From Planctomycetaceae bacterium (GTDB taxonomy: Bacteria > Planctomycetota > Planctomycetia > Pirellulales > UBA1268): a stretch of DNA of 51,509 nt. The stretch covers positions 1-51,509 of the forward strand of contig JBJTRH010000041.1 of assembly GCA_046076065.1 (NCBI GenBank). Direction: 5' to 3'. How positions within the stretch are numbered: the first letter of the stretch is position 1; every line of letters begins with the position of its first letter. Below the pieces are notes generated by a model. That model was not told where the DNA came from. It was given only the letters and a program-made list of their open reading frames with translations, and made no database searches. The translations under genes were made by a program, and so were the position numbers. Shown here one piece after another: positions 16,464 through 50,017 of this stretch.

Positions 16464-16520
16464 CGGCGACGCCGCGAGGCGCTCCCTGCGAGCCGGCCTG
16501 TAGCGTAGCCTACGCGGGCC

Positions 16521-24324: not shown

Positions 24325-24413
24325 TGCGGAGGTCGGTTCATCATGGGCCTCCCCGTTTGACTACGTGGAGAGGTTGCCCCAGACTAAGCGGCTTCCTTGT
24401 GGCAGGCACATGC

Positions 24414-26195: not shown

Positions 26196-26203
26196 GAGGG
26201 TGC

Positions 26204-28466: not shown

Positions 28467-28517
28467 AGTCGTCTTCCGGCGGGAACGCGTGCGGCTGATT
28501 GGTCGTGTGCGATCGCA

Positions 28518-32028: not shown

Positions 32029-32739
32029 ATGAAACCATTTTCACAGGCAGGTAGTGCGACACGGTTTGCCCCCGTTGCGGTCGAGTCGCGGCGGGCACTG
32101 CGTCATGAGGTCGCCCGCTGCCTGCTGCTCGAGATTTTTCGCGGGAACGTGCCCGCCGGCACTCGGCTGATCACCCAGAAGCTTGCCAAGCAACTGGGTG
32201 TCAGTGCCACGCCGCTCCGCGAGGCGCTCGTCGAGCTCGAGTCGATCGGCATGGTCGAGATCAGTCACAACCGCGGCGCCGTCGCAGCGGCGTTCGGCCC
32301 CGCCGAGCTTCGCGGCATCTATCAGGTGCGTCGCGTGCTGGAGAGCGAGGCAGCCCGCTGCGCCTGCGGCCGCATCGACCGGGACTTGCTCGAGTCGTTC
32401 CACGCCGAGATGCTCGAGCATGCCGGCCGGCGTGTGAAATCCGCCGCATGGCTCAGGTCCGCAATGGCGTTCGATGCCCGATTCCATGCCTCGATCGCCG
32501 AGGCGTGCCAGAGCCCCAGGCTGGCCCGGGAGATCGATCGCCATGCGCTGCTCATGCAAACCATCAGCGAAGCCATCGGCAACGAGTATCACAGCAAGGA
32601 AGATGGCATCCAGGAGCACCTCGAGATCATCGACGCCCTGCTCGCGGAGGACGCAGATCGGTCGGCCCGTGCCATGGCGAAGCACATCGATGCCACGGCG
32701 AGCCGAGCGTTGGGCGTGATGTTCTCCGCGGCTCCTTAG
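32029..32739 (+). CDS. GntR family transcriptional regulator (FadR-type, FCD C-terminal domain)
   Basis: 236 aa. Winged-helix segment LITQKLAKQLGVSATPLREALVELESIGMVEISHNRG, followed by a helical FCD-like domain. Confidence 0.8.
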   Translation: MKPFSQAGSATRFAPVAVESRRALRHEVARCLLLEIFRGNVPAGTRLITQKLAKQLGVSATPLREALVELESIGMVEISHNRGAVAAAFGPAELRGIYQVRRVLESEAARCACGRIDRDLLESFHAEMLEHAGRRVKSAAWLRSAMAFDARFHASIAEACQSPRLAREIDRHALLMQTISEAIGNEYHSKEDGIQEHLEIIDALLAEDADRSARAMAKHIDATASRALGVMFSAAP

Positions 32740-32828: not shown

Positions 32829-32843
32829 AATATTTTATCGAAT
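32829..32843 (+). promoter_or_regulatory. AT-rich element upstream of the PEP-CTERM gene array (candidate -10 region)
   Basis: aatattttatcgaat lies about 80 nt upstream of the ATG at 32925 and is the only AT-rich patch in the 185-nt intergenic region after the GntR gene. Confidence 0.25.
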
Positions 32844-32924
32844 CCGAGCGGCGCCGATGGCTGCACGGTGTCGGGGCGATGGTTGCGCACGATTCTGCGG
32901 GGGTCGAAGAAAGGAGCGGGTGCG

Positions 32925-35366
32925 ATGCGAGACGGAGCGGCTCAACGATCGGCGATCGTCTGCGCTATCGTCCTCTCGGCGGCGATGCAGATGCGGGCGG
33001 ACGGCCAGGAGATCGTGACCTACGTCGGCGGCACCGGCGCGACCACCACAAGCCAGCAGAGCTGGACGCAGCCGGGAAACTGGACGTCGGGCTCCATTCC
33101 GTGCGGCCCGACGGTCTGGGCCCAGATCAATCCGGCGGGCGCGGCGGGATCGACGCTACGGATTCTGTACTCGTCGACGTCGCTGGCGGGATTGACGGGC
33201 ACGACGAACGTGCTGAGCGTCGGCGCGATGACATTTCCGCAGACGCTCGTGAGCGCGTCGACGACCTACTCGATCCAGAATAATGGCACCTCCGCCGGCA
33301 CCAAGGGCACGCTGAGGTTCTACGGCGTCGATACGACCATCGGTGGTCAGCCGCGAAGGGTGATCATCGACAACAGCACGACGCTCTCCGACGTCGCGTT
33401 CACCCAGACGAACCAGGGGCAGGAGTTCGAGCTCAACACGTCGGGGGTGATCAATGTCGCCGCGGGCACGCAACTCTCGCTCTCGACGATGGTCAGGCAG
33501 GACGGCACGGCGCGGTCGATCACGAAGGTCGGGAACGGCGTGCTCGCCTTCGCCGGCACCGGCAATCAATCGAGCCTCAGCACCTACACGGGCGGGTTCG
33601 TGCTCGAGGGCGGCGTCGTGCAGTGGGCGCTGAGCGGCACGGCGGCCTCTGGCACCCCGTTCGGAATCGGTTCGTTGACGCTGCGGAACGGCATCCTGCG
33701 GTCGACGGGCACGTCGGGCCGCTCCGTCAACGTGAGTGTCGTGCTCGACGGCACGGCGGAGATCGGGTCCACGTCCTCCGGGCTGACCGGTGGCATCACG
33801 GTGAACAGCGCCGGCGGCAGCCTGGCCACATCCGTGCGACGCGATAGCGTGCTAGCCATCGCGGATGGCCAGTCGACGACGTGGCACCAGGCCACGACCG
33901 GTTCCGGCGGGCTGACGAAGGCCGGTGGTGGTACCCTGCGGTTCTCCGGTGCCGGCGGCACGCTGGCGCACTCCGGCAGCACGGTCGTGCAGTCGGGCAC
34001 GCTGGTGATGGACGCGGTTCTGGCATCGCCGAGCGGCGCCACGATCCTGGCCGGGGCGGCGCTGCTGGGCTCCGGCACGCTCTCGAGTCCGACGACGATC
34101 TCCGGCAGCGCCACGCTTTCTCCCGGCAGCGGCGTGGGTGCCCTTTCGTTCGGGAACGTCACCTGGTCGCCGGGCGTCAACTACAACTGGCAGATTCAGT
34201 CGGGCACCGGCGGGGCAGGCAGCGGCTGGGATCTTGCTTCCGCCAGCGGCACCCTGGCCATCGCCGCGACGATCGGCAGTCCGGTAAAGCTCAACCTCTG
34301 GTCGGTGACGGGCACCACGCCCGACGTGACCGGTACCGCGACGGGCTTCGATCCCGCAGCGAGCAGCTACATCTGGCCCGTGGCCAGCGCGAACCGCGGG
34401 GTCACCGGCTTTTCGGCAGCCAAGTTCGTCATCGACACGTCCGCGGTCAACGGCACCGGTGGCTTCACCAACGACCTCGCCGGCGGTGCATTCAGCGTGG
34501 CTCAGATCGGGAACACGCTGGCGCTCGTGTTCACCTCAACGGCCTCCCGGCCCGTCATCACGATCGGCGTGTCCGGTACGCAGACCCAGGCCCAGACAGG
34601 TTGGCCGCTGCTGTCAGGCACTTACCCCCTGTTCAAGACGGGCACGGGCACGCTCGTGGTCGATCAGGCCAACACGATCACCGGGTCCACCGCCGTTCAG
34701 GCGGGTCGCCTCCAGTTGGCCAATGCAGCCGCGCTCGCCACTAGCCGAGTGGTGCCTCTGGCCGGCGGCACCGTGACCCTGTCGCCTGGGCTCACCACCA
34801 CCGTAGGCGGCCTGGATCCCAGTGCCGGCGGTCTCGTCGATGTCGGAAACGGGTTCGTGACGGTCACTGCGGGCCTGCCCGCCGCCGGCATGCTCGCGGC
34901 TCTGCTTGCCGGTCGCGGCGATGGCTCCTGGAACGGCACGACCGGGATCACGTCGTCTGCAGCGGCGGACGCCATCGCCAAGTCGCTGCCGCGGACGGTC
35001 GGCTGGCTCGACAATGGCGATGGCTCGGTCAGTTTCGCCTTCGCGGCATCGGGCGACACCAACCTCGACTGGAGCGTCGACATCCTCGATGCGGCCAACT
35101 TCTTCGCCGGCGGCAAGTACGACTCCGGCCAGCCGTCGTCGTGGATCGACGGCGATTTCAACTACGACGGCGTCGTTGACATCCTGGACGCCGCCGATTT
35201 CTTCTCGACCGGCCTGTTCGACGCCGGCGGCTACAACCCGCCTCCTGCCGGCGGGGCGGTCATGGCCGTGCCCGAGCCCTCGGTCGGCCTGGGGTGCCTG
35301 GCGGCCGTTGGAATCCTTGTGTGCCGGTGTCGGTTATCCAAGCCCAGATCGTTCGTCGAGGAGTGA
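32925..35366 (+). CDS. PEP-CTERM surface protein with autotransporter-associated beta-strand repeats and a dockerin-like pair (modules A+B)
   Basis: ATG at 32925, preceded by aaggag at 32911-32916. Signal peptide present. Repeats of the type TKVGNGVLAFAGTG / TKAGGGTLRFSGAGG / GTLVM. C-terminus has GDTNLDWSVDILD, GDFNYDGVVDILD and VPEPSVGLGCLAAVGILVCRCR. Confidence 0.8.
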   Translation: MRDGAAQRSAIVCAIVLSAAMQMRADGQEIVTYVGGTGATTTSQQSWTQPGNWTSGSIPCGPTVWAQINPAGAAGSTLRILYSSTSLAGLTGTTNVLSVGAMTFPQTLVSASTTYSIQNNGTSAGTKGTLRFYGVDTTIGGQPRRVIIDNSTTLSDVAFTQTNQGQEFELNTSGVINVAAGTQLSLSTMVRQDGTARSITKVGNGVLAFAGTGNQSSLSTYTGGFVLEGGVVQWALSGTAASGTPFGIGSLTLRNGILRSTGTSGRSVNVSVVLDGTAEIGSTSSGLTGGITVNSAGGSLATSVRRDSVLAIADGQSTTWHQATTGSGGLTKAGGGTLRFSGAGGTLAHSGSTVVQSGTLVMDAVLASPSGATILAGAALLGSGTLSSPTTISGSATLSPGSGVGALSFGNVTWSPGVNYNWQIQSGTGGAGSGWDLASASGTLAIAATIGSPVKLNLWSVTGTTPDVTGTATGFDPAASSYIWPVASANRGVTGFSAAKFVIDTSAVNGTGGFTNDLAGGAFSVAQIGNTLALVFTSTASRPVITIGVSGTQTQAQTGWPLLSGTYPLFKTGTGTLVVDQANTITGSTAVQAGRLQLANAAALATSRVVPLAGGTVTLSPGLTTTVGGLDPSAGGLVDVGNGFVTVTAGLPAAGMLAALLAGRGDGSWNGTTGITSSAAADAIAKSLPRTVGWLDNGDGSVSFAFAASGDTNLDWSVDILDAANFFAGGKYDSGQPSSWIDGDFNYDGVVDILDAADFFSTGLFDAGGYNPPPAGGAVMAVPEPSVGLGCLAAVGILVCRCRLSKPRSFVEE

Positions 35367-35370
35367 CTCC

Positions 35371-36339
35371 ATGCAACGTCGAGGCTTCACGCTCGTGGAA
35401 CTGCTGGTCGTCATCGCGATCATCGCGGTCCTCATCGGCCTTCTTCTTCCGGCCGTGCAGGCGGCCCGCGAGTCGGCTCGCCGGTCGTCGTGTCAGAACA
35501 ATCTCAAGCAGATCGGACTCTCGCTGCTCGGGCATCACGATGCCCGCAAGCGATTTCCCGGGGGCTTCCTCAGGAATGCGGACTACTCCGTCGGCACCTT
35601 CAATGGTCCCGGATGGGGGTGGGGCGCGATGATCCTGCCCCAGATCGAGGAGGCGACGCTCTTCGACAAACTTCGGCCCGCCAGTCGGGATCTCTCCACG
35701 GCCGCCGACATCGTCGCGCTGGCGCAGACGAGGGTGCCGGCGTTTCGCTGTGCGTCGTGCCCCGTGTCGTCGAACCTCAACGAAGCGTTGCCCGGCACGG
35801 CCACCGCGCCGGCGTTCTCGCTGTCGAACTACAAGGGCGTGTTCGGCGATCGCAACACGCAGGCCAAGTACAGCGACCTCGGCAACTGCCCGAACTTTGC
35901 CGGCAGTTGCATCGAGGGGGGCAACGGCATCTTCAGCCCCGGCACGAGGTCCACGGGCGTGAAGATGAAGGATATCACGGACGGTGCCAGCAAGACGCTT
36001 CTCGTCGGCGAAGTGCCGTACGGCCCCAACGGCGCCGAGAACTCGTCGGGCGGCCTCGTGTCGTACCGGGGTGCCGTCTGGGCGGGCGTGATCGCCCAGG
36101 CCGCCGAAAGCAACGTCGCGACCCACCAGACGCTGCGGGGCCTTCTCGCTTCCGGGGCCGCGAGCACCGAGTACATCCCCAACGGCACCAACAGCAATGC
36201 ATTCGGTTCGCACCACACGGCCGGCACCGGGTTTGTTCTGGCCGACGGCAGCGTGCGTTTGCTGACCAGTGCTCTCGACGCGGCCGTGCTCAACCGTCTC
36301 GCCGCCCGCGACGACGGCCAGGTCATCGACGCGTTCTGA
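35371..36339 (+). CDS. DUF1559 protein with prepilin-type N-terminal cleavage/methylation domain and H-X9-DG C-terminal motif
   Basis: In-frame ATG at 35371 within track ORF 34906..36339. N-terminus MQRRGFTLVELLVVIAIIAVLIGLLLPAVQAARESARRSSCQNNLKQIGL and C-terminal FGSHHTAGTGFVLADGSV. Starts 4 nt after the upstream stop. Confidence 0.85.
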   Translation: MQRRGFTLVELLVVIAIIAVLIGLLLPAVQAARESARRSSCQNNLKQIGLSLLGHHDARKRFPGGFLRNADYSVGTFNGPGWGWGAMILPQIEEATLFDKLRPASRDLSTAADIVALAQTRVPAFRCASCPVSSNLNEALPGTATAPAFSLSNYKGVFGDRNTQAKYSDLGNCPNFAGSCIEGGNGIFSPGTRSTGVKMKDITDGASKTLLVGEVPYGPNGAENSSGGLVSYRGAVWAGVIAQAAESNVATHQTLRGLLASGAASTEYIPNGTNSNAFGSHHTAGTGFVLADGSVRLLTSALDAAVLNRLAARDDGQVIDAF

Positions 36340-36362
36340 ACCGGTTGCCGCGGGGCCTCATC

Positions 36363-36818
36363 ATGTCATTGTCCCGAACACGACGAGCGCTCTTGCCGCA
36401 TCTGGGGTCGCTTGCCTTCCTTGCCGGATGCTTCGGGCCGCCTGCGTTGAAGTACGACATGATTCCCGTCGAGGGGATCATCACCCTCGAGGGCACCCCG
36501 CTGGTTGCGGCCGAGGTGATGTTCGATTCCGCGGATGGGCCTCGAGGGTTCGGGACCACCGACGAGTCGGGCAGATTCACGGTCATGACGAGGCAGTTCG
36601 GCGCAGGTCTGCCGGTGGGAACCTATCGAGTGATGATCGCCGGGTCGGAGCGGACGCGAGTCGCCCCGTCCGGCAAGCCCGTCAAACTCTCGCCCCGGTA
36701 TCGGGAATCCGGGGTTGGCAAGGCGACGATCGCAGTCGGAGGCGGACCGCTGCAGTTCGATCTCAAGAAATCTGCTGGGGCCGGCAGCGACGAGTCCGGC
36801 GATACGGCCGAACCCTGA
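36363..36818 (+). CDS. small lipoprotein (carboxypeptidase-regulatory-like beta-sandwich, typical DUF1559 neighbour)
   Basis: In-frame ATG at 36363 within track ORF 35490..36818. Lipobox LAFLAGC. Also GIITLEGTPLVAAEVMF...DESGRFTV...GTYRVMI. Confidence 0.6.
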   Translation: MSLSRTRRALLPHLGSLAFLAGCFGPPALKYDMIPVEGIITLEGTPLVAAEVMFDSADGPRGFGTTDESGRFTVMTRQFGAGLPVGTYRVMIAGSERTRVAPSGKPVKLSPRYRESGVGKATIAVGGGPLQFDLKKSAGAGSDESGDTAEP

Positions 36819-36853
36819 ACGACGAGACTCCAATCGAGCGAGGTTGACCATCC

Positions 36854-38500
36854 ATGAAGCGTTCCCTGTTTATCACGTTCGGGGCGGTGGCCGTTGCGGC
36901 TGTTGTCGCCCTGCATTCCCACCGCGCTGCGGCCCAGACGGTTTCGACGTTCCTCGGTGGCAGTGGCACCACGGAGCTGGCTCAGACCGGCTGGACCACT
37001 GCCGGCAACTGGAACACCTCAACCGTGCCCACGGGCACGGGCGTCTGGCCGCAAATCAACTCCAGCACGGCCACCGCACTGCGGGTCAACTACGGCAGTT
37101 CCGCGGTCGGTACGACGGGCACTCTCACGGTGGGTGCAATCTCGTTCCTGCCGACGCTCACCGTGGCGACCGGGAGCACGTACGAGTTTCGTAACAGCAG
37201 TTCGAGCCAGAGGGGTACCCTGCGGTTCTACGGCGTCGATACGACGGTGGGCGGCGTGCCGAGAAGGGTGATCCTCGACAACCGGACGGCACTCGGCGAC
37301 ATAGGGGTCAGTCAATCGAGCCAGGGCCAGGACTATGAGCTCTATACGTCCGGTGCGATCAACGTCGCCGCCAGCACGTCGCTCACGCTCTCGCCGTTGA
37401 TCCGCGATGGGAGCGGGTCGCGGTCGATCACCAAGGTCGGGCAGGGCGTGCTGTCGTTCGCCGGTGTCGGGTATGCGGCCACGACGACGAACAACTCCGG
37501 CTCGAGCACCTACTCCGGCGGCTTCGTCATGGACGGCGGGATCGTGCAGTGGGCCCTCAGCGGAACGGCCGGAGTCGGCACGCCCTTCGGCCTCGGAGCC
37601 CTGACGCTCCGCAGCGGAACCCTGCGATCGACGACCACGTCCGGACGCTCGATCAACTCCAGCGTGATCCTCGACGGCTTCGCGACGCTCGGCTCCGTGG
37701 ACAGTGGCTTCACGGGTTCGATCACGATCAACAGTTCGGGCGGTGCGCTCACAACGACGGTCGCCAGTGACAGCATTCTCACGGTCGTGGCTGGCGGATC
37801 GACGGCGTGGAACCAGGGGACGAGCGGAACCGGGAGCCTGACCAAGGCCGGGGCTGGGATCCTGCGATTCACCGGAGCCGGCGGAGCGCTCACCCACACG
37901 GGGAGCACGGTCGTGCAGTCGGGAACGCTCATCATGGCGGCCAACCTCTCGTCGTCGAGCCCCGTCTCGGTGCTGAACGCGGCAACGCTCCTCGGCACCG
38001 GCACGGTCGCCGGAGCGGCGTTGATTCAGGCAGGCGGTGTCTTCTCGCCGGGGGCGGTGAGCGGCACGGCGGGCGTGTTCACGTTTGGAAGCGGCGGGCT
38101 CGGCCTCGCGGGCCAGACGATCCTCGAGCTCTCGGGGACCTCTCGGGGCACGTCGTACGACGGCGTCAACATGGCTGGGGCACTCACCTACGGAGGCTCG
38201 CTCCTGCTCCAGTTCTCGGGCACGCTGCCGGAAGGGACGTACAACCTGTTCAGCGGCTTTGCCTCGCAGGTCGGCAGCTTCGCCTCGATCTCGGCCGCCG
38301 GCGGATACTCGGGCTCGCTGACGGAGGCATCCGGCGTGTGGAGCGGGACGTTTGGCCCCCAGACCCTCACGTTCACCAACGCGACGGGGGATCTCGTGAT
38401 CGTTCCAGAGCCTTCCTTGCTGCTCGCGGCGGGCGGGAGCCTTGCGATCGCCATCGGCGGCGTCGTACGCCGGCTGCGCGGTCCCCGGAGGGCGTCGTAG
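36854..38500 (+). CDS. PEP-CTERM surface protein with autotransporter-associated beta-strand repeats (module A paralogue)
   Basis: 548 aa with a signal peptide (MKRSLFITFGAVAVAAVVALHSHRAAAQ). Long near-identical stretches to 32925..35366, for example GTLRFYGVDTTVGGVPRRVILDN. C-terminal VPEPSLLLAAGGSLAIAIGGVVRRLR. Confidence 0.8.
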   Translation: MKRSLFITFGAVAVAAVVALHSHRAAAQTVSTFLGGSGTTELAQTGWTTAGNWNTSTVPTGTGVWPQINSSTATALRVNYGSSAVGTTGTLTVGAISFLPTLTVATGSTYEFRNSSSSQRGTLRFYGVDTTVGGVPRRVILDNRTALGDIGVSQSSQGQDYELYTSGAINVAASTSLTLSPLIRDGSGSRSITKVGQGVLSFAGVGYAATTTNNSGSSTYSGGFVMDGGIVQWALSGTAGVGTPFGLGALTLRSGTLRSTTTSGRSINSSVILDGFATLGSVDSGFTGSITINSSGGALTTTVASDSILTVVAGGSTAWNQGTSGTGSLTKAGAGILRFTGAGGALTHTGSTVVQSGTLIMAANLSSSSPVSVLNAATLLGTGTVAGAALIQAGGVFSPGAVSGTAGVFTFGSGGLGLAGQTILELSGTSRGTSYDGVNMAGALTYGGSLLLQFSGTLPEGTYNLFSGFASQVGSFASISAAGGYSGSLTEASGVWSGTFGPQTLTFTNATGDLVIVPEPSLLLAAGGSLAIAIGGVVRRLRGPRRAS

Positions 38501-38547
38501 TCGCTGCCCACGGGGTTGTGCATCCTTCATCGTCACGGAGCCGATCG

Positions 38548-39864
38548 ATGTGCCTGAGAAGCCCGATGCCCCGTGAAAAGGTGTTCGGTGCAATCGTGCT
38601 CGGTCTGCTGGTGGCGGTCCAGCCAGCTGCGCTCCGGGCCTGCACGACCGCGGTGATCACCGGCAAGGTGACCGCGGACGGCAGGCCGCTCCTCTGGAAG
38701 AGCCGCGACACGAAGAGCCTGCCGCGAAACGAGGTCGTGGTTTACGACGGCGGGAAGTACCGCGTGCTCGCCGTGGTGAACGCCGGCGATCGTGACGAGG
38801 TGTGGATGGGCGTCAACTCTGCTGGATTCTGCATCGAGAACTCGCTGAGTCGCGACCTGGACGTGCAGGGCGAGAAACGAGGGCCTGGCAATGGCGGCAT
38901 CATGAAGGTCGCGTTGGAGACATGCGCCACTGTGGCCGATTTCCGCGAACTCCTTCAGCGGACCAACGGCACGGGCCGCCGGACCGACGGCAACTTCGGC
39001 GTCATCGACGCCGTCGGCGGTGCTGCGCTCTTCGAGGCTGGTCCTCGGACATTCCGGATGTTCGATGCCAACGATCCGGAGGTCGCGCCGCGGGGTTACA
39101 TCGTGCGATCCAACTTTTCGACGACCGCACAGGGCGTGTCGCCGGCGCCCGACCCCGACAGCGTGGAGGGCACATACTCCGGGGATCGCTACGCGCGGGC
39201 ATGCGATCTGATCGATGGGCATCTGGGGGATGGCCTCGGTGTTGCCTACCTCCTGCGCCACGTCTGTCGGGACATGGCCGACGGCAGCGGGCGGCCATTC
39301 ACGGGAACTGTCAACGGCGCCCCTGGGAGCCTTCCGGGGGAGGTGAGCACTGCCGCCACGATCAGCCGCACGACGACCGTGTCGGCAGGTGTGTTTCACG
39401 GGGTGAAGCCGGGCGAGGATCCACGACTGACGACCATGTGGGTGCAGCTCGGAGACCCGAAGTTCTCGATCGCCGTGCCCTGCTGGGTCTTGTGCGAGTC
39501 GTTGAATGAGGCCGTCGCCGGTGAGAATGGCGGGGCGATTTGCTCAATTGCGACGACGCTTCGGGAGTGGAATCTTACCGAGGACCGCGATGGTGTTCGC
39601 ACCGAGCAGTTGCCCCAGGTCTGGGAGGACGTCTGGCCGGTGGAGGCCCGATTGATCGCCGCGGTCGAGAAGGTGCGGCAGCAGTGGGCCCTTTCCCCGC
39701 CCGGCCCGGACGACTACACGGAGACCCATCGGCATCTTGCCACGCAAGCGCTCGACGCGATGCGAGCCGAGTTGGAGGACATGAAGGAGGCGGCGCTGAG
39801 CCTTCCAGCGCCGCCGCCGCCGGTGTTTTCCCCATCATCCTCGGAGCCGGCGCTGGCGCCATGA
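38548..39864 (+). CDS. exported Ntn-hydrolase-like protein (peptidase C45 / C69 / choloylglycine hydrolase-like)
   Basis: In-frame ATG at 38548 (alternative at 38566) within track ORF 37807..39864. The signal peptide ends AALRA|CTTAVITGKVTADGRPLLWKSRD, exposing an N-terminal Cys, as expected for an Ntn nucleophile (or a lipobox Cys). Also MGVNSAGFCIENS, ALETCATVADFRELL and NFGVIDAVGGAALFE. The family call is by motif only. Confidence 0.6.
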   Translation: MCLRSPMPREKVFGAIVLGLLVAVQPAALRACTTAVITGKVTADGRPLLWKSRDTKSLPRNEVVVYDGGKYRVLAVVNAGDRDEVWMGVNSAGFCIENSLSRDLDVQGEKRGPGNGGIMKVALETCATVADFRELLQRTNGTGRRTDGNFGVIDAVGGAALFEAGPRTFRMFDANDPEVAPRGYIVRSNFSTTAQGVSPAPDPDSVEGTYSGDRYARACDLIDGHLGDGLGVAYLLRHVCRDMADGSGRPFTGTVNGAPGSLPGEVSTAATISRTTTVSAGVFHGVKPGEDPRLTTMWVQLGDPKFSIAVPCWVLCESLNEAVAGENGGAICSIATTLREWNLTEDRDGVRTEQLPQVWEDVWPVEARLIAAVEKVRQQWALSPPGPDDYTETHRHLATQALDAMRAELEDMKEAALSLPAPPPPVFSPSSSEPALAP

Positions 39865-40691
39865 CCACCACCATGCTTCCGCGGACTGTCGTCGTCTGCT
39901 GCGTGCTCGGGCTCGTGCTGGGCGGCGCAGCCGACCAGATCGCCGGTGCGGGCGACGAACGTGCGGTCGTGCGGGTCGCGATCTACGACGATTCGGCGGA
40001 AGCCGGCAAGGGCCCGGTGAACCTGCTGAGGATTCTGACGCCCGATGCCGGCTTTTCTTCGCGGCGGATCTCGTCTGGCGAGATCCGTCAGGGCATGTTG
40101 GCCGACTTTGACGTGCTGATCATGCCGGGCGGATCAGGCAGCAAGCAGGCGGAACGGCTCCAGGCGTCGGGCTGCGAGCAGATCCGCGATTTCGTGCGGG
40201 CGGGTGGAGGCTACGTGGGCATCTGCGCGGGGTCCTACCTGGCGAGTTCCCACTACGACTGGTCGCTGGGCCTGATCAACGCCCGCGTCTGGGATCGGGC
40301 CCACTGGGCGCGGGGTGGGGGAGATGTCTCGATCCGGATGTCCGATGCCGGGTGGCAGCTGCTGGGTCGAGGTGGCAGTGTACCCGTGCGATACAACCAG
40401 GGACCGCTCCTGGTTCCGGACGACGAGTCGGACCTTCCGGGCTACGAGGTACTGGCCACCTTCGAGACGGCGGTGGCCGACAAGGGCGCCCAGCCGGGGT
40501 CAATGGTCGGCACCCATGCCATCATCCGGTCGATGTACGGCCAGGGCCGCGTGATCTGCTACAGCCCCCATCCGGAGGCTGCGGGCGGGCCCAATGGCAT
40601 CATCGCGTCCGGCGTTCGCTGGGCGGGCGAGGGCCGCCCGGGACGAGCCGGCCGGCAGCCTGGAAAGCGGGCGAATCCGAGCCCCAGTTGA
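39861..40691 (+). CDS. exported class I glutamine amidotransferase-like protein (BPL_N-type domain)
   Basis: In-frame ATG at 39861 within track ORF 39540..40691, with an ATGA overlap with the upstream gene. N-terminal hydrophobic segment. Motifs VRVAIYDD, FDVLIMPGGSG and the nucleophile-elbow-like GGGYVGICAGSYLAS. Confidence 0.6.
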   Translation: MTTTMLPRTVVVCCVLGLVLGGAADQIAGAGDERAVVRVAIYDDSAEAGKGPVNLLRILTPDAGFSSRRISSGEIRQGMLADFDVLIMPGGSGSKQAERLQASGCEQIRDFVRAGGGYVGICAGSYLASSHYDWSLGLINARVWDRAHWARGGGDVSIRMSDAGWQLLGRGGSVPVRYNQGPLLVPDDESDLPGYEVLATFETAVADKGAQPGSMVGTHAIIRSMYGQGRVICYSPHPEAAGGPNGIIASGVRWAGEGRPGRAGRQPGKRANPSPS

Positions 40692-40752
40692 CCCCGAGAG
40701 AACCCGGTCGCGGCACCGGCCGTAGAACGGGACACCAGCCCTGAGCCCCTCG

Positions 40753-43119
40753 ATGCTCCCCCCACGATCGACCCGCCGCACGTCGCTCGCCGCCCTCGTC
40801 GTCGTGACGCTGGCCGCGCCTGCTGCAGCGGACGCACTCTCGTCAGGCTGGATCACGCTCGGCGGCGGCACGCAGACGCCCTACTACATCCGGACCACCT
40901 CGGTGCCAGGGCCGACGGTCATGGTCACCGGCGGCGTGCACGGCAACGAACCGGCCGGAGCCGCGGCCGCCAACCAGATCCGCACGTGGTCGATCACCAA
41001 GGGCACTCTGATCGTCGTGCCGTTCTGCGCGCCCCAGGCGCTCGACGCGAACACACGGGAGATCGCGGGTGAGGGCAATCTCAACCGTAACTTCCCCGGA
41101 GTCGGTGCCCCGATCACGGCCACGACGGGATCGACGGCGACGGCCCTGTGGGCCTTCGCCCGCCAGGTCATGCCCGGGTGGCACATCGACATGCACGAAG
41201 GCATCGGCATCGCCGGCGATGAAGCATCGACGTCGGTCGGGTCCAGCATCATTCACATGAATGAGTCGGTGACGAACTCGCAGGTCACGAAGATGCTCAG
41301 TGCCGTCAACGCGGGCATCACCGATCCCACCAAGAAGTTCTCGGACCTGGGCAGCACCGGCCCCATCGACACGAGCTTCGCTCGCGCGAGCGTGGCACAC
41401 CTGGGGGCGCGTGGCATGATCGTCGAGACCACCTCGACCGATCAGGTGCTCTCGCTGCGGGTCAATCAGCACCGGACGGCGGTCAGTCAGTTTCTCATGG
41501 ACCAGGGCATGATCGGCAGCGCGTTCGGCGGTCTGCGGAACGGGGTCGTCGACGAGTTCACGTTCGACGAGCCCGAGGGCTCGAGGCTCACGCAGGCCGG
41601 CAACTCCTATCCCAATGGCAATGCCTGGGACGTCTCGCCGTTCAGCACGCGGACCCAAGATGGCCTGTTGAAGATCCAACGCACACAGAGCGGCACGTCC
41701 ACAACGTCCACCGGCCTGCTCGGGGGGGGTGAGGTGCGGGTCCGGCGTGCCGGCGACACTGGCAACGTCGCCACGGACATCGGCGAGGGGTTTGCGACGA
41801 TGGTGGTCGACGGCTGGGATTTTCGCAGCACCCAGATCGGCGAGACGATCAGTTTCGGGTTCCGAAACGCCGTGTCTCCAACGGCCGAGGACACGGCGCA
41901 CATCGTGCTCAGGCGGACGGGGTTGGACGAGGTGTCGATCCTCGGGCAGGGATTCGGCACCGGCAGCGGCACGATCGGTTCCCAAGCCGTGTTTCGTGCC
42001 GTGCAGGACACGCCGGTGCAGTTCGTGCTCCAGCTCAACAAGCAGACCAACCTCAACGGCACGCCGCTGGTCTCCGGCGCCGCTGCGGGCGGCTACTACC
42101 GCGTCTTCTACCAGCCCCTCGGCCAGGACTTCGTCGAGGTCGGTAGCGGCGCGGCGGTGCGGCAGGATCGGAATGGCAATCATCTGACCATGCGGATTTC
42201 CGGGTCGATCGGCGCGAGCGGCGGTTCGTTCGACGTCGACCGCATGGCGTTCAGTTCGGTGCTTCCCGGACTGCTCGTTCCGCCATCCGCGCCCGGCGTC
42301 GTGAACCTGATGTGCACGACGGGCACGTTGACGCAGGGTCGGGCCGGTTTCCCATTTCTGTCGGGAACGACCAGGCTGGAGAAGACGGGCGCCGGCACGA
42401 TGGTGCTCGACGCCGCCAATGTGCTGACGGGGTCCACCACCGTCCTGGCCGGGAGGCTGCATCTGGCGAATGCGCTGGCCCTCCGCGCGAGTCGGGTCGT
42501 GCCGCTCGCCGGCGGCACCGTCTCGGTATCCGCCGGCCTGCAGACGATCGTCGGCGGGTTGGTCACCGACTCCGGCGGTCTGGTCGACCTGGGCAGCGGC
42601 ATGGTGACCGTTGCCGGTGGCCTCTCCGCCTCGAGCCTCGTCGACGCGATTCGGATGGGCAGGGCAGACGGGAGTTGGAGCGGAGCGCGGGGCATCACCT
42701 CCAACGCGGCGGCTGCGGCAGTCTCCCGGAGCGTCCCCCGCACGGTCGGCTGGCTTGACAACGGCGACGGATCGGTGACCGCCGCCTTCGCGGCAGCGGG
42801 CGACACCAACCTGGACTGGACCGTGGATTTGCTCGATGCCGCCAACTTTCTGGCGGGCGGCACGTTCGACGCGGGTTCGTCGGCGACGTGGAGCGAGGGG
42901 GATTTCAACTATGACGGCATCACGGACATTCTCGACGCCGCCGACCTGTTCTCGACGGGCTTGTACGATGCCGGCCCGTACAACGCGTCGGCCGGAGCCC
43001 CGTACGAGGTGAACGCGGTTCCCGAGCCGGCCAGCAACCTGATGGGCATCGCCTGCGCCGCATGCTGGGGGTGGGCCGCCTGTCGCAGGGTGCGCAGTCA
43101 TCGTCGACTCGTCAGTTGA
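40753..43119 (+). CDS. AstE/AspA-type (M14-like) zinc hydrolase domain fused to an unknown beta-rich middle region and the module-B repeat/dockerin-like/PEP-CTERM C-terminus
   Basis: 788 aa with a signal peptide. Motifs VMVTGGVHGNEPAG, GNLNRNFPG, WHIDMHEG and MIVETTS (zinc-ligand and catalytic-Glu contexts of the succinylglutamate desuccinylase/aspartoacylase family). The C-terminal ~260 aa is closely similar to the C-terminus of 32925..35366 and ends VPEPASNLMGIACAACWGWAACRR. Confidence 0.75.
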   Translation: MLPPRSTRRTSLAALVVVTLAAPAAADALSSGWITLGGGTQTPYYIRTTSVPGPTVMVTGGVHGNEPAGAAAANQIRTWSITKGTLIVVPFCAPQALDANTREIAGEGNLNRNFPGVGAPITATTGSTATALWAFARQVMPGWHIDMHEGIGIAGDEASTSVGSSIIHMNESVTNSQVTKMLSAVNAGITDPTKKFSDLGSTGPIDTSFARASVAHLGARGMIVETTSTDQVLSLRVNQHRTAVSQFLMDQGMIGSAFGGLRNGVVDEFTFDEPEGSRLTQAGNSYPNGNAWDVSPFSTRTQDGLLKIQRTQSGTSTTSTGLLGGGEVRVRRAGDTGNVATDIGEGFATMVVDGWDFRSTQIGETISFGFRNAVSPTAEDTAHIVLRRTGLDEVSILGQGFGTGSGTIGSQAVFRAVQDTPVQFVLQLNKQTNLNGTPLVSGAAAGGYYRVFYQPLGQDFVEVGSGAAVRQDRNGNHLTMRISGSIGASGGSFDVDRMAFSSVLPGLLVPPSAPGVVNLMCTTGTLTQGRAGFPFLSGTTRLEKTGAGTMVLDAANVLTGSTTVLAGRLHLANALALRASRVVPLAGGTVSVSAGLQTIVGGLVTDSGGLVDLGSGMVTVAGGLSASSLVDAIRMGRADGSWSGARGITSNAAAAAVSRSVPRTVGWLDNGDGSVTAAFAAAGDTNLDWTVDLLDAANFLAGGTFDAGSSATWSEGDFNYDGITDILDAADLFSTGLYDAGPYNASAGAPYEVNAVPEPASNLMGIACAACWGWAACRRVRSHRRLVS

Positions 43120-45981: not shown

Positions 45982-46265
45982 TGGGTCGCCCGGGATGTGG
46001 ACGGCGACTTCAGTTCGCGTTGGCGTGAGTTCCGGCGGTGATGGCTCATCGCCGCGCCGAGATGGCTGCGGTTCCAGTCCGACGGCCGGGTGGCGCTGAT
46101 TTGCCCGCGAAACGGCTGTGACTGCGAAACGGCGGTCCGATCGATTATTGTGGCGTGGGTCGGGAACGGTCGGTTTCGGTCCGGACGCGGCGAGTGTCCG
46201 GCCGGTGTCCCACGCGGGCGACGAGCCCTGCGGGAGCGGACGCCGGAAAACTGAAGGAGCGCTTG

Positions 46266-47327
46266 ATGATTTCGTTTCGGTTCGAGCACGTCTGCGTTGA
46301 GTCGTTCGGCCTGCACTTTCCCGACACCCTCCTGTCTTCCGCCGAGATCGAGGCCCGGATCGCCCCCGCCTACGATCGGCTGAGGGTTCCGGCCGGCACG
46401 CTGGAGCGGGTCAGCGGCGTGAGCACCCGCGGCATGTGGGCCACCGATGTCACGCCCAGTTCCGTGGCCACCGCGGCGGCCCGGCAGGCCCTCGACCGCT
46501 CCGGCTTGCGGCCGGATCAGATCGGCGCCCTGTTCAACTGCTCGGTGTCGCGAGACTTCTTCGAGCCTGCCACCGCCTGCCTCGTGCACCACAACCTCGG
46601 CATCCCCGAGGAGTCGCTGGTGCTCGACATCACCAACGCCTGCATCGGCTTCAGCGACGGCATGATCATGCTCGCCCACCTCATCGAGGCGGGCACCGTG
46701 AAGGCGGGGATCCTCTGCTCCGGCGAGAACATCTCCAAGGTCGTGCACACCACCTGCGACCAGCTGCTCGGCGACCAGGGCATCACCCGCGAGAAGCTCC
46801 TCCAGATGCTCCCCACGCTGACCCTCGGCTGCGGGGCCGTGGCGGCGGTGCTCTGCCACGACAGCATCTCCTCCAGCCGCCACCGGTTCGTCGGCGGGAT
46901 CGCCCGCTCGGCGTCGCAGCACCACCAGCTCTGCATCGGCAATGGCGACTTCAGCGTGGGGCAGGGGGAGGAGATCGCGCCGATCATGACGTCCGATGCG
47001 GCCCAGCTGATGATCGCCGCCGCCAAGCTCGGCGGCCGCGCGTTTCCCGACGTGACCGCGTCGCTCGGCTGGTCGAAGGAGCACGTCGATCACGTGTTCT
47101 GCCACCAGGTGGGGCGGCAGGTGAACGAGGCCTTCTACCAGGAGATGGGCCTCGACTTCGACAAGGATTTCACGATCTACAAGCGGTATGGCAACATGGT
47201 GTCGGCCGCGCTGCCGGCGGCGCTTGCGATCGGCGTGGAGGAGAAGGGCATCCAGCCCGGCGAGAAGATCCTGCTCACGGCCTTCGGGAGCGGGCTCAAC
47301 ACGCGGTTCCTGGCGTTCGAGTGGTAG
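46266..47327 (+). CDS. oleA: OleA-type thiolase (FabH-like 3-oxoacyl-ACP synthase III family)
   Basis: In-frame ATG at 46266, preceded by gaaggag. Active-site Cys context DITNACIGFSDG and a C-terminal FGSGLN. It is adjacent to the oleBC and oleD homologues. Confidence 0.75.
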   Translation: MISFRFEHVCVESFGLHFPDTLLSSAEIEARIAPAYDRLRVPAGTLERVSGVSTRGMWATDVTPSSVATAAARQALDRSGLRPDQIGALFNCSVSRDFFEPATACLVHHNLGIPEESLVLDITNACIGFSDGMIMLAHLIEAGTVKAGILCSGENISKVVHTTCDQLLGDQGITREKLLQMLPTLTLGCGAVAAVLCHDSISSSRHRFVGGIARSASQHHQLCIGNGDFSVGQGEEIAPIMTSDAAQLMIAAAKLGGRAFPDVTASLGWSKEHVDHVFCHQVGRQVNEAFYQEMGLDFDKDFTIYKRYGNMVSAALPAALAIGVEEKGIQPGEKILLTAFGSGLNTRFLAFEW

Positions 47328-47365: not shown

Positions 47366-50017
47366 ATGAGCGGAGCCGACGCCAGCGACAGCGGAATCCC
47401 GTTCGCCTATGGCCCGGCTTACCCGTTTCCCTCGCGGTTCGTCACGGTGGGCGGCCACCGGATGCACTACGTCGACGAGGGAAGCGGCCCGGTGGTCGTC
47501 TGCCTGCACGGCAACCCCACCTGGGGCTTCCTGTTCCGGAACATCGTCGCCGGCCTGCGGCACGAGTTCCGGGTGATCGTGCCCGACCACGTGGGCTGCG
47601 GGCTGTCGGACCGGCCACGCGACGCCCTCTTTCGGGCGGCCGACCGCATCGCCCACCTCGAGGAGTTCCTCGACCGGCTCGGCGTCGGGCGATTCGCGCT
47701 CGTCATGCACGACTGGGGCGGGCCGCTCGGCACCGGCCTGGCCGTCCGGCGGCCCGAGAGCGTCGAGCGGCTCGTGTACTTCAACACCACGCTCGCCGAG
47801 ATGGATCTCCTGCCGGCGATGATCCGCCGGGCCGCGTCGCCCCTGATCGGCCGGATGCTCACGCAGCACACCGCCCGATTCGTCTCGCTGCTCACGTCGC
47901 TCGGCGCGGCGCGGCCGCTGCCGGAGGAAGTCTGCCAGGCCTACCACCGCCCCTACCGCACCGCCGAGAGCCGCCGTGCGATCTGGGGATTCGTCCGCGA
48001 CATCCCGTTGTCGGCGAGCCATCCGACGGCGGCCTTGATGGACGATCTCGTGGTCCGGCTGCCGGCGCTGGCGGGCAAGCCGGTGCGGCTCGTGTGGGGC
48101 ATGAAGGATCCCTGCTTCCAGCCCGCGATTCTCGACCGAGTGGCCGCGCGGTTTCCCGACGCCGACGTCATCCGCATCGCCGAGGCCTCGCACCTGGTGC
48201 TCGAGGACGCGGCCAGCGAGTCGACCGCCGCGGTCCACGAGTTCCTGCGGCCGCTCGTGCCCGCCGCGGCCGTCCTGCCGGCGGTCGCGAAGCGGCCGGC
48301 CGCGCCCGTCCCGGAAGCCGTGCCCGCGCCGTCCCGGCCCGCCACCACCGGAAGCGGCCTCTACGGCTCGCTCCAGGCGGCCGCGGCCGCGGCGCCGTGG
48401 GTGTCGGCGGTCACCAAGGTGTCGTTTCCCCGCTGGAGCCGTCGGCCCCGCTACGACGCGATCGACTTCGCCGCCCTCGCCTCCCGGATCGACGCCTACG
48501 AGCGGGGGCTCACCGAGGCCGGGCTGCGGGCCGCCGAGCGGGTGATCATGCTCGTGCGGCCGGGCGTCGACTTCCTGGCGCTCAGCTACGCGGTGATGGG
48601 GCGGGGGGCCGTGCCGGTGTTCATCGACCCGGGCATGGGGGTCGATGCGGTCGTGGCCTGCATGCGGGAGGCCGCCCCGACCGGCTTCATCGGTGTGCCG
48701 CGGGCGCATCTGCTGCGGCTCAAGGCATCCGACGTCTTTCGCTCCCTGCGGTTCTGCATCGTCGCGGGCCGTGTCTCGCTCTTCGGCGCCACGCCGCTGC
48801 GGCGGCTGCGCCGCCCCGCGGCCGTCCGCCCGGCGCCGGTAACGCGGCAGGCCGACGATCCCGCCCTCGTCGCCTTCACGTCCGGCGCCACCGGCAGGCC
48901 GAAGGGCGTGATCTTCACCAACCGCATGCTGACGGAGCAGCTGGCCGTGTTCCGCGGCCAGTTCGGCTTCCGCGGAGGCGAGCAGGATCTGCCGCTCCTG
49001 CCCGTGTTCAGCCTGTTCACGGCGGCACTCGGCGTGGGGAGCATCTTCCCGCCGCTCGACCCCAGCCGGCCGTTGTCATTGGTGCCCGCGCAGATCATTC
49101 GCGTGATGCGCGACCTCGGCAACCAGACGTCGTTCGGGTCGCCGGCGCTGTGGACCAAGCTCGCCGACTACTGCCGGCGGACGGGCACCTCGCTGCCGAA
49201 TCTGCGGCGGGTGTTCATGGCGGGCGCGCCGGTGTCGTCGGCTACCATCGAGCTCGTGCGGAACGCCTGCCCCCAGGCGGAGAGCTTCACGCCCTACGGT
49301 GCCACCGAGGCGCTGCCGGTCACGCTCGCTGCGGCGGCCGACCTCAGCAGCCTGTCGCCGATCACCGCCCTCACCGGCGAGCAGGGCACGCCCGTCGGCC
49401 GCGCGATCGACGGCGTGTCGCTCCGCGTCGTCCTGCCGGTCGGCGATCCCGCTGGCGCGTCGCTTTGCGACTGCCCGAAGCGGGTGATCGGCGAGATCGT
49501 CGTCAGTGGTGGCACGGTGAGCTGCGAGTATCTCGCCCGCCCGGAGGCGAATGCCGCCAGCAAGATTCTCGAGGCCGGCCGCGTCTGGCATCGGATGGGT
49601 GACATGGGCTACCTCGACGACGAGGGACGCCTCTGGTTCTGCGGGCGGAAGGCGCACGTCGTCACGACGCCGGATCGCGTCCACCACAGCGTGCCGGTCG
49701 AGAACGTCTTCAATCGGCATCCCGAGGTGCGGCGCACCGCGCTCATCGCCGTGGAGGGCCGGCCGGCCCTGGCGGTCGAGCCGCGGTCACGACGGCTCGG
49801 CGCCGAGGCCCGCCGCCGCCTCGCGGGCGAACTTCGGGCGATCGGTGCCGCCGACCCGGTCACGGCCACGATCACGCGGTTCTATTTCCACGACTCGTTT
49901 CCGGTCGACGCCCGTCACAACGCCAAGATCTTCCGCGACCGTCTCGCCGAGTGGGCGGCCACGCAGACGCCGGTGGAGGTCGACGGCGGCGGGCCGGTGG
50001 CCGAGGCCCCGGCATGA
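47366..50017 (+). CDS. oleBC: fused OleB (alpha/beta hydrolase, haloalkane-dehalogenase-like) and OleC (AMP-dependent synthetase/ligase)
   Basis: 883 aa. The N-terminal domain has HYVDEGSGPVVVCLHGNPTWGFLFRN and LVMHDWGG. A Pro/Ala-rich linker follows. The C-terminal domain has LVAFTSGATGRPKGV (AMP-binding motif) and WHRMGDMGYLDDEGRLWFCGRK. Confidence 0.8.
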   Translation: MSGADASDSGIPFAYGPAYPFPSRFVTVGGHRMHYVDEGSGPVVVCLHGNPTWGFLFRNIVAGLRHEFRVIVPDHVGCGLSDRPRDALFRAADRIAHLEEFLDRLGVGRFALVMHDWGGPLGTGLAVRRPESVERLVYFNTTLAEMDLLPAMIRRAASPLIGRMLTQHTARFVSLLTSLGAARPLPEEVCQAYHRPYRTAESRRAIWGFVRDIPLSASHPTAALMDDLVVRLPALAGKPVRLVWGMKDPCFQPAILDRVAARFPDADVIRIAEASHLVLEDAASESTAAVHEFLRPLVPAAAVLPAVAKRPAAPVPEAVPAPSRPATTGSGLYGSLQAAAAAAPWVSAVTKVSFPRWSRRPRYDAIDFAALASRIDAYERGLTEAGLRAAERVIMLVRPGVDFLALSYAVMGRGAVPVFIDPGMGVDAVVACMREAAPTGFIGVPRAHLLRLKASDVFRSLRFCIVAGRVSLFGATPLRRLRRPAAVRPAPVTRQADDPALVAFTSGATGRPKGVIFTNRMLTEQLAVFRGQFGFRGGEQDLPLLPVFSLFTAALGVGSIFPPLDPSRPLSLVPAQIIRVMRDLGNQTSFGSPALWTKLADYCRRTGTSLPNLRRVFMAGAPVSSATIELVRNACPQAESFTPYGATEALPVTLAAAADLSSLSPITALTGEQGTPVGRAIDGVSLRVVLPVGDPAGASLCDCPKRVIGEIVVSGGTVSCEYLARPEANAASKILEAGRVWHRMGDMGYLDDEGRLWFCGRKAHVVTTPDRVHHSVPVENVFNRHPEVRRTALIAVEGRPALAVEPRSRRLGAEARRRLAGELRAIGAADPVTATITRFYFHDSFPVDARHNAKIFRDRLAEWAATQTPVEVDGGGPVAEAPA

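Follow-up and report, generated by a model that had tools for sequence, protein, structure and literature searches.

An operon-like cassette of related lake Planctomycetaceae that links three putatively exported hydrolase families

Introduction

The described kind of locus nearest to the one reported here is the cluster of exported catabolic hydrolases that includes enzymes anchored by sorting signals. In cyanophycin catabolism, CphB or CphE (family S51, GATase1-like fold) is combined with either the isoaspartyl dipeptidase IaaA, an N-terminal nucleophile (Ntn) enzyme, or CphZ of the AstE/AspA family (PMC9974463). The CphZ subfamily is marked by an Arg-binding acidic pair (D222/E223 in AbCphZ) and by clustering with cyanophycin genes (PMC9974463). 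Here we describe seven genes (g1 to g7) at positions 32925-43119 of a stretch of 51,509 nucleotides, hereafter the window, from a Planctomycetaceae bacterium (assembly GCA_046076065.1, contig JBJTRH010000041.1). We consider it probable that they form an operon-like cassette of one clade, with a core of three cooperating exported hydrolases of amide bonds that are partly tethered to the cell surface.

All parts of the cassette belong to known superfamilies and are generically annotated in databases. Planctomycetes are important degraders of complex organic matter, and we know of no role for most of their exported proteins. The members of the AstE/AspA family known to us are cytoplasmic or periplasmic single-domain enzymes, and we are aware of no function for the DUF1559 family. 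Literature searches on BPL_N/PF09825, DUF1559, C45 together with GATase-like proteins, and PEP-CTERM in Planctomycetes returned no description of a C45/BPL_N/AstE linkage or of the cassette. The layout of the locus, the domain identities, the conserved catalytic residues, the synteny and the fusion and adjacency links reported below were computed.

Results

Linkage of three hydrolase families

Three of the products resemble hydrolases: g5 is an Ntn-type cysteine hydrolase of the C45/C69 kind, g6 is a BPL_N-type protein resembling class-I glutamine amidotransferases (GATases), and g7 carries an M14-like zinc hydrolase domain of the AstE/AspA type. A profile of g5 homologues was scanned over one genome per species, giving 66 loci with 10-kb flanks onto which the window proteins were mapped; synteny counts are raw counts that ignore phylogenetic relatedness. 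Of the 62 Planctomycetota loci that could be evaluated, 49 have a BPL_N gene directly 3' of the C45 gene in the same orientation, and single proteins of 650-700 residues in which C45 and BPL_N are fused account for 32 of the best 120 g5 homologues. The zinc enzyme is joined to the same partner, since 86 of the best 120 homologues of the g7 catalytic domain are fusions of AstE_AspA with BPL_N, and the BPL_N part of these fusions matches g6 with E-values of 1e-59 to 1e-109. Outside the clade of the window, fusions of this type, about 500-560 residues long and from Verrucomicrobiota, Phycisphaerales and others, are closest to the g7 catalytic domain (42-52% identity). BPL_N is thus a fusion hub, being fused to either the Ntn enzyme or the zinc enzyme. 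An earlier note on this DNA, made from the sequence alone, had singled out the Ntn, BPL_N and M14-like genes as a possible trio, and their linkage is borne out by gene adjacency as well as by fusions of two independent types. Taken together, the fusions and the adjacency suggest that the three enzymes very probably work together on an extracellular substrate.

A second planctomycete lineage (Blastopirellula, Bremerella, UBA2671, SH248 and Fuerstiella) has a layout of its own, in which a divergent XylR-like regulator (Peripla_BP_3+HTH_18) is followed by C45, BPL_N and an open reading frame (ORF) of 234 residues, with DUF1559 and lipoprotein genes upstream. Five loci of this lineage encode an 837-residue Peptidase_M14 protein (PF00246) of a different subfamily from g7, and in two loci (L056, L057) BPL_N directly precedes the PF00246 gene.

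A conserved ORF of 230-240 residues, which has no Pfam match, begins about 1.5 kb past the start of C45 in L005, L008, L019, L025, L032, L045, L053, L056 and L057; it follows BPL_N except in L056 and L057, where it follows C45. It contains a GYGSLMN motif, and on motif likeness alone it is reminiscent of gamma-glutamylcyclotransferase or ChaC-type proteins. ORFs of 226-236 residues found after the verrucomicrobial AstE-BPL_N fusions were considered as counterparts of the 234-residue ORF and were rejected as unrelated on comparison.

Catalytic features of the three enzymes

The predicted signal peptide of g5 would be cleaved between ALRA and CTTAV, which would expose Cys32. This residue and many near it are invariant among 25 diverse homologues, and in each of 120 g5 homologues C-[TS]-[TS] comes after a signal-like segment. 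Many of the 1078 homologues, including many at 50-60% identity, match PF03417, and they are named peptidase C45 or "carcinine hydrolase/IAT family". The AlphaFold2 model of g5 (predicted local distance difference test score 87.9) has the alpha-beta-beta-alpha Ntn fold and a long C-terminal helical hairpin. Foldseek places the C69 cysteine dipeptidase of L. farciminis first (5iau/5img, E 1e-12, TM-score 0.62); bile salt hydrolase (BSH), isopenicillin-N acyltransferase (IAT), penicillin V acylase, NAAA and acid ceramidase follow, all matches lying between E 1e-12 and 1e-6 and the acylases reaching TM-scores of 0.3-0.45. A search of the g5-family profile against PDB sequences gave only noise and no significant chain. 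On its modelled fold, g5 is assigned to the Ntn cysteine hydrolases (clan PB: C45, C59, C69, C89), in agreement with the Ntn-like character proposed for it in the earlier note and with the PF03417 matches of many of its homologues.

The g6 protein matches BPL_N (PF09825) with 67.3 bits (gathering cut-off 24.2). Its triad Cys122-His237-Glu239 sits in the motifs GICAGS and HPE, all three residues are kept in every one of 114 BPL_N domains drawn from the fusions with C45 and with AstE, and the Cys aligns with the PfpI nucleophile. By these motifs g6 has the signature of a class-I GATase, with a G-x-C-x-G elbow and H-x-E. Such a triad is typical of the hydrolysis of gamma-glutamyl or glutamine amides. 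In a library clustered at 50% identity the family comprises 2958 representatives at E<=1e-3, of which 1072 pass E<=1e-10. Their architectures are varied: some stand alone, others form tandem arrays of two to five copies, carry a sorting tail of the type IX secretion system (T9SS), or are fused to an N-formylglutamate amidohydrolase (FGase) domain. Individual g6 relatives (P0276, P0286, P0275, P0252, P0260) include proteins of more than 1000 residues with a T9SS Por_Secre_tail, arrays of up to five copies and an FGase fusion.

The N-terminal domain of g7 matches AstE_AspA_cat (PF24827) with 46.9 bits (cut-off 25), and its invariant residues comprise the zinc ligands H63, E66 and H148, the carboxylate clamp N111-R112 and the catalytic E225. 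Structural relatives of this domain are DoeB/EutE (6twm), Mlr6093 (2qj8), 3cdx, AstE-family proteins, Csd4, MpaA and CphZ. Enzymes of this group (the AstE family, DoeB, Csd4/MpaA and CphZ) cut amides next to acidic or diamino acids, namely N-succinyl-Glu, N-acetyl-diaminobutyrate, gamma-D-Glu-meso-diaminopimelate (mDAP) and beta-Asp-Arg. The C-terminal module of g7, termed module B, is 64% identical in protein and 69% identical in DNA to that of g1, a PATR beta-strand-repeat protein, and a VPEP-type C-terminus is conserved in the consensus of g7 orthologues. The proposal of the earlier note that a hydrolase has been built onto the C-terminal module of an adhesin-like protein is thereby upheld. 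Because g7 is fused to a copy of the PATR/dockerin-like/PEP-CTERM-like module of g1, the enzyme is probably held on the cell surface by a PEP-CTERM-like anchor, as judged from sequence.

The middle domain of g7 is predicted to be an all-beta sandwich and is possibly a binding domain; profile searches found no relatives of it in Pfam or the PDB. That it might be a degenerate BPL_N domain was rejected, as it is predicted to be all-beta and has no similarity to g6. A third link between the enzymes is provided by Stieleria, in which C45 homologues carry a C-terminal region of about 230 residues that is homologous to this beta-sandwich and sits where BPL_N normally sits; these are a 645-residue protein of Stieleria marina (L062, 9938-11875) and a stop-to-stop frame of 734 codons (L061), with phmmer E-values of 5e-26 and 2e-28 to the g7 beta-sandwich. 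In another relative of g7 (P0150, 759 residues), AstE_AspA_cat and the initial portion of the beta-sandwich are combined with a Peptidase_S8 (subtilase) domain.

The cassette in related genomes

The full array is present in the close relatives L002, L003, L004 and L020, in which C45 is about 75% identical to g5. Five metagenome contigs extend the comparison. L074 (C45 80% identical) has all seven genes, with an SDF symporter gene and a racemase-gamma-glutamyltransferase (GGT) pair before them, the pair directly 5' of the cassette, and cytochrome genes after them. L067 and L068 (65%) also have the seven genes, here with a DEAD helicase gene upstream, an opposite-strand FtsX/ABC pair downstream and no GntR gene. 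L069 (67%) has a lipoprotein gene, a PATR gene, a fused C45-BPL_N gene and an AstE-PATR gene, and L075 (64%) has g4-g5-g6-g7 only. The cassette is a discrete unit of related lake Planctomycetaceae, kept down to 64% C45 identity, and not a chance run of genes. Its content and order are kept while the flanks change, which therefore sets its limits at 32925-43119.

The same-strand run of seven ORFs and its gaps, as given in the earlier note, were reproduced exactly, and synteny puts the borders of the cassette at the same coordinates, although the same-strand run itself is longer. The neighbourhood conservation on which that note had made its proposal depend was also found, as the array recurs in related genomes and the hydrolase assignments are supported. 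The note had further placed the array directly downstream of a GntR/FCD regulator. Pfam confirms this gene 185 nt 5' of g1, and a GntR gene is upstream in L004 as well; the link is however not constant, as no such gene precedes the cassette in L067, L068 and L074.

The PATR/PEP-CTERM genes are restricted to the clade of the window. Within it, a g4-type gene lies immediately 5' of C45 in every cassette, including the four-gene form of L075, and g1 orthologues are present in L002-L004, L067 and L074. By contrast with clear paralogues of g2, which are 30-42% identical, several genera have copies at 54-60% identity no more than about 3 kb away from C45-BPL_N. A g3-like lipoprotein accompanies the g2 orthologue in 7 of 7 loci, and also in L070 and L074. 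These g2/g3 orthologues are found near C45-BPL_N in Pirellulaceae, Planctomycetaceae and Fuerstiella, either ahead of the pair in the same orientation, divergent from it, or downstream and convergent; this linkage in varied orientations argues for retention through rearrangements. The locus is described here as a composite and not as a single invention, with a widespread C45-BPL_N pair that mostly lacks the other genes, PATR/PEP-CTERM genes of one clade and an inconstant GntR link.

Gene layout and predicted envelope-associated products

Positions of the genes, modules and associated elements are given in Table 1. With a G+C content of about 70% over the whole window, long spurious ORFs are abundant. 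Coding frames were chosen by ORF listing and scoring, a third-position GC frame plot and translations, and the frame plot and ORF scoring support one coding frame per segment on the + strand from 32.9 to 43.1 kb. The spacers between g1 and g5 are 4, 23, 35 and 47 nt; g5 and g6 then overlap by 4 nt (ATGA), and 61 nt separate g6 from g7.

Table 1. Features of the seven-gene locus and its upstream region (positions in the window; aa, amino-acid positions in the product).
Feature	Position	Strand	Match or remark
GntR/FCD transcription regulator	32029..32739	+	Pfam FCD 3e-20, GntR 2e-12; context only
AT-rich element AATATTTTATCGAATCC	32829..32845	.	GntR-g1 spacer; alignment of window with L004
g1, 813-aa exported PATR beta-strand-repeat protein (predicted)	32925..35366	+	PATR 37.2 bits, TIGR02601
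g1 module A	aa 24-402 = 32994-34130	+
g1 module B	aa 550-789 = 34572-35291	+	DxNxDG dockerin-like motifs
g2, DUF1559 pseudopilin-like protein	35371..36339	+	prepilin N-methylation signal, H-X9-DG C-terminus
g3, 151-aa lipoprotein (predicted)	36363..36818	+	FLAGC lipobox
g4, 548-aa exported PATR protein with PEP-CTERM-like tail (predicted)	36854..38500	+	TIGR02601
g4 module A	aa 24-401 = 36923-38056	+
g5, exported Ntn-type cysteine hydrolase, C45/C69-like (predicted)	38548..39864	+	NF040521 5e-15 (below cut-off)
g6, exported BPL_N-type class-I GATase-like protein (predicted)	39861..40691	+	BPL_N 1.3e-18
g7, 788-aa exported multidomain protein (predicted)	40753..43119	+	AstE_AspA_cat 3e-12, PATR 1e-6
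g7 AstE/AspA-type M14-like zinc hydrolase domain	Pfam aa 52-231 = 40906-41445	+
g7 unclassified beta-sandwich	aa 263-515 = 41539-42297	+
g7 module B	aa 523-763 = 42319-43041	+	PATR, dockerin-like motifs
g7 PEP-CTERM-like tail	43018-43116	+

The + strand run extends from PEPCK at 28499 to HemW at 44345, with PEPCK, an SDF symporter gene and the GntR gene ahead of the array and HemW 95 nt behind it. In the alignment of the window with L004, the GC-rich spacer between the GntR gene and g1 has diverged except for an island of identity, AATATTTTATCGAATCC, which by its sequence may serve the cassette as promoter or operator. A promoter consensus scan, with folding of the spacers, gave 0 promoter matches, and a terminator scan gave three terminator-like matches, all intragenic and fewer than in shuffles; these scans do not bear on operon structure. 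The array was also considered as a horizontally acquired island, which was rejected as its borders show no sharp change in GC content.

By a crude hydrophobicity heuristic and motifs, all seven N-termini resemble export signals, as the earlier note had stated for every product; four are of the Sec type, one is of the prepilin type and one is a lipobox, and the signal of g5 ends in ALRA. The same heuristic finds export signals in about 90% of the homologues of the seven products. Components of type II secretion systems or type IV pili (secretin, ATPase and platform genes) were not found among the annotated window genes.

Module A is common to g1 and g4 (55% identity), so that the sharing of modules A and B reported in the earlier note holds for both. 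Against the Pfam PATR cut-off of 27, g1 and g7 lie above (37.2 and 28.9 bits) and g4 lies below (24 bits), g4 being above the cut-off of TIGR02601 (25.3 bits versus 19.85). The tails of g1, g4 and g7 consist of VPEP, a hydrophobic stretch and an Arg-rich end, and the models that they match are only those of PEP-CTERM, at 11.7-17.1 bits versus a cut-off of 20.7 and 14.3 versus 16 (PF07589, TIGR02595). Module B was also considered as dockerin type I, which was rejected, as Dockerin_1 (PF00404) has an E-value of 2.4 on g1 and the likeness is limited to the DxNxDG motifs. The g2 product scores above the cut-offs of PF07596 (DUF1559/SBP_bac_10; 151.5 bits, 6e-44), PF07963 (N_methyl; 32.2 bits, 7e-8) and TIGR04294 (HX9DG; 22.8 bits), and g3 has a weak match, below the cut-off, to CarboxypepD_reg, of transthyretin-like fold (7.7e-4). 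Of the domain calls made in the earlier note, those for PATR, DUF1559, BPL_N, AstE_AspA and the lipobox are thus confirmed, whereas the profile scores for PEP-CTERM and C45 stay below threshold.

In L067 (3637-7608) and L068 (3019-6990) a g1-type PATR/PEP-CTERM ORF runs without a stop into the DUF1559 gene, the called protein being of 1323 residues. The join reads VPEP, a transmembrane segment, RRARPRRRRQTRARRRG and then GFTLVELL, and may be explained by read-through, by an artefact of sequencing or by a genuine fusion.

Other genes of the window

The region 22951-28466, 5' of PEPCK, contains a glutamate/cysteate-racemase-like gene that is below threshold for both MurI and CuyB, a GGT gene above the TIGR00066 cut-off, an M19 membrane dipeptidase gene and, on the - strand, a CuyA-like gene (D-cysteate sulfo-lyase/D-cysteine desulfhydrase; 441 bits versus a cut-off of 450). 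It looks like a catabolic set for glutathione, gamma-glutamyl peptides or cysteate. A single 1504-residue ORF on the - strand (12867-17381) combines a complete GntP permease with Cytochrome_CBB3, PA14 and the planctomycete domains DUF1595/DUF1592/DUF1588, and may represent two genes merged, stops being rare at high GC, or an unusual fusion. Homologues of formylmethanofuran dehydrogenase subunits A (536 bits, above cut-off) and B are encoded on the - strand at 9035-11517; such C1-transfer genes are typical of Planctomycetota. Finally, an 883-residue ORF (47366-50017), in which an alpha/beta-hydrolase domain is fused to an AMP-binding (adenylating) enzyme, adjoins a KAS-III-like gene (46155-47327).

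Discussion

From these data we infer co-transcription of the cassette, export and anchoring of its products, sequential action of the enzymes and a substrate class. Removal of the signal peptide of g5 would leave the catalytic Cys as the new N-terminus, g6 would act as a BPL_N-type, class-I-GATase-like hydrolase with a Cys-His-Glu triad, and g7 would be a zinc deacylase or carboxypeptidase of the AstE/AspA (M14-like) type held at the surface. The three may break down, step by step, an extracellular substrate that has non-standard amide bonds beside acidic amino acids, and the freed amino acids would then be taken up. Candidate linkages are of the gamma-glutamyl, beta-aspartyl and N-acyl-amino-acid type, and candidate sources are poly-gamma-glutamate, cyanophycin-type polymers and peptides derived from peptidoglycan. 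The PATR proteins g1 and g4, together with g2 and g3, would be accessory parts of the envelope, with adhesion, retention and transport as candidate roles. The capture-and-cleavage apparatus suggested in the earlier note is supported in part, namely for the conserved unit, the linked enzymes and the enzyme joined to a g1-type module; binding of the substrate by the PATR proteins and a single apparatus of all seven products would be possibilities.

A gamma-glutamyl, beta-aspartyl or N-acyl-amino-acid-type amide is weakly suggested as the substrate, by analogy, by the GATase-type triad in g6, the family membership of g5 and of g7, the BPL_N-FGase fusion and the nearby genes. In the window a GGT gene, a glutamate-racemase-like gene, an M19 dipeptidase gene and a GltP-like symporter gene lie upstream, and a GGT gene is also found near C45-BPL_N in L008 and L025.

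Several points weigh against a cassette built around three cooperating exported hydrolases. The substrate proposal is composed of family analogies and loosely linked neighbours, and the upstream racemase and lyase could belong to the catabolism of cysteate or glutathione. Although its triad is intact, BPL_N could serve as a partner domain without hydrolytic activity. In Verrucomicrobiota and Phycisphaerales no C45 gene lies near the AstE-BPL_N fusions, and the three enzymes are therefore not always a trio. The g5 protein has no Pfam match of its own and scores 55.7 bits against the NCBIfam model C45_proenzyme (NF040521), which does not reach the cut-off of 85. Most C45-BPL_N loci are without the other five genes, the pair being widespread across Planctomycetota. 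At the level of the locus, the gaps of 47 and 61 nt are large enough for internal promoters, the PEP-CTERM tails score below the curated cut-offs, and no exosortase was found among the scanned window genes.

It is tempting to go further than a cassette of three cooperating enzymes and to propose that BPL_N-type domains are a large, unrecognised family of extracellular cysteine amidohydrolases, commonly partnered with Ntn or zinc amidohydrolases in the Planctomycetota-Verrucomicrobiota-Chlamydiota group and in Bacteroidota, and that the cassette is a surface-tethered "amidosome" which depolymerises and imports a non-ribosomal polyamide. The PATR adhesin-like proteins, the beta-sandwich binding domain and the pseudopilin/lipoprotein pair would then serve depolymerisation and import, and poly-gamma-glutamate, cyanophycin or peptidoglycan peptides from other lake microbes would be the substrates. 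We put this wider proposal forward tentatively; it may apply, and we are doubtful of it in its full extent.

Among the alternatives, the one that survives best is that the locus is a mosaic, in which only C45-BPL_N, with or without the M14-like enzyme, forms a functional unit and the PATR/PEP-CTERM and DUF1559/lipoprotein genes are neighbouring members of very large paralogue families, with no integrated surface system. This would fit the 66 genome loci, most of which hold C45-BPL_N alone with variable neighbours, and it would also fit the limitation of the PATR genes to the clade of the window, the lack of g1-g3 in L075 and the AstE-BPL_N fusions that stand alone in other phyla. It is however difficult to reconcile with a g4-like PATR gene directly 5' of C45 in all cassettes of the clade, down to 64% identity and with differing flanks, and with g7, which joins an enzyme covalently to an anchor module of the g1 type. 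The g2/g3 genes, at 54-60% identity where paralogues have 30-42%, moreover recur by C45-BPL_N in Pirellulaceae, Planctomycetaceae and Fuerstiella in three orientations. We therefore regard a mere mosaic as unlikely.

A role in maintenance of the cell's own envelope in place of feeding, whether by trimming peptidoglycan stem peptides or by acting on PEP-CTERM proteins or lipid-linked amino acids in the course of exosortase-type sorting, appears improbable to us. Catabolic-type, substrate-responsive regulators adjoin the genes in several lineages (GntR/FCD here, XylR-like in the second lineage), no genes for cell-wall synthesis or an exosortase are nearby, and the nearest fold match of g5 is a dipeptidase. 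These observations outweigh, in our opinion, that Csd4 and MpaA, which are structurally akin to the g7 domain, cleave gamma-D-Glu-mDAP within the peptides of peptidoglycan, that the cassette encodes three PEP-CTERM-like proteins, and that PEP-CTERM/exosortase loci have been linked to N-acyl amino acid synthases, according to the work of Craig et al. 2011 as it is cited in PMC7293339. The least probable reading is that the module cleaves N-acyl amino acids or lipid amides (signals, surfactants) and not peptides. Penicillin V acylase, bile salt hydrolase, NAAA and acid ceramidase are indeed fold relatives of g5, the AstE/AspA family includes the N-acyl-amino-acid deacylases aspartoacylase and DoeB, and N-acyl tyrosines are made by planctomycetes (PMC7293339). 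Over its full length, however, g5 is structurally closest to the C69 dipeptidase and not to the acylases, the g6 triad is of the type found in gamma-glutamyl/glutamine amide hydrolysis, and the neighbourhood is without conserved genes of lipid metabolism.

With three cooperating hydrolases as the favoured interpretation, the locus links three uncharacterised families of exported enzymes (C45/C69-like Ntn, BPL_N-type GATase-like and AstE/AspA-type zinc enzymes), of which the BPL_N family alone amounts to some 1000 clusters at 50% identity and E<=1e-10, and this linkage is a concrete and testable entry point. It also provides a first recurring genomic partner for one DUF1559/lipoprotein orthologue, and g7 exemplifies the recruitment of an enzyme to a PEP-CTERM adhesin scaffold. 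Should the substrate indeed be a microbial polyamide, the cassette would represent a route for the turnover of nitrogen-rich necromass in lakes.

Comparison with known systems

Cyanophycin catabolism employs the same three folds on one non-standard polyamide, and secreted versions of its first enzyme exist. CphZ itself ranks 46-50 among the structures that resemble the g7 domain, a likeness at the level of fold only. The differences are that g6 is a BPL_N protein with a Cys nucleophile and not a Peptidase_S51 with Ser, that the nucleophile of g5 is Cys whereas that of IaaA is Thr, and that neither a cyanophycin synthetase nor a cyanophycinase gene is nearby in the window. We therefore treat the cyanophycin system as a useful analogue, and membership of the locus in it is not claimed.

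With PEP-CTERM/exosortase sorting (Haft et al. 2006, PMC1569441) the locus shares three products that combine a predicted signal peptide with VPEP, a hydrophobic helix and an Arg-rich tail. It differs by the sub-cut-off scores of these tails, by the absence of an exosortase or exopolysaccharide locus in the window, and by a cargo that includes an enzyme fused to an adhesin-type module. Similarly, g5 resembles the C69 dipeptidases and the C45/C59 Ntn acylases (5iau, 2x1d, BSH) in its predicted Ntn fold and in the N-terminal Cys of C-T-T, but is predicted to be exported, carries the C-terminal helical hairpin and has BPL_N as a regular fusion partner or neighbour.

The HxxE...H zinc site, the N-R clamp and the catalytic Glu of g7 are those of the AstE/AspA-family deacylases, MpaA and Csd4. 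Unlike these, g7 is predicted to be exported and combines the enzyme with three further parts (beta-sandwich, PATR/dockerin-like module, PEP-CTERM-like tail), and its nearest relatives are BPL_N fusions. The g2 product is typical of the planctomycete DUF1559 (H-X9-DG) pseudopilin-like families, having the prepilin signal, DUF1559 and HX9DG; what sets it apart from them is that its orthologue, together with the lipoprotein partner, is repeatedly linked to C45-BPL_N.

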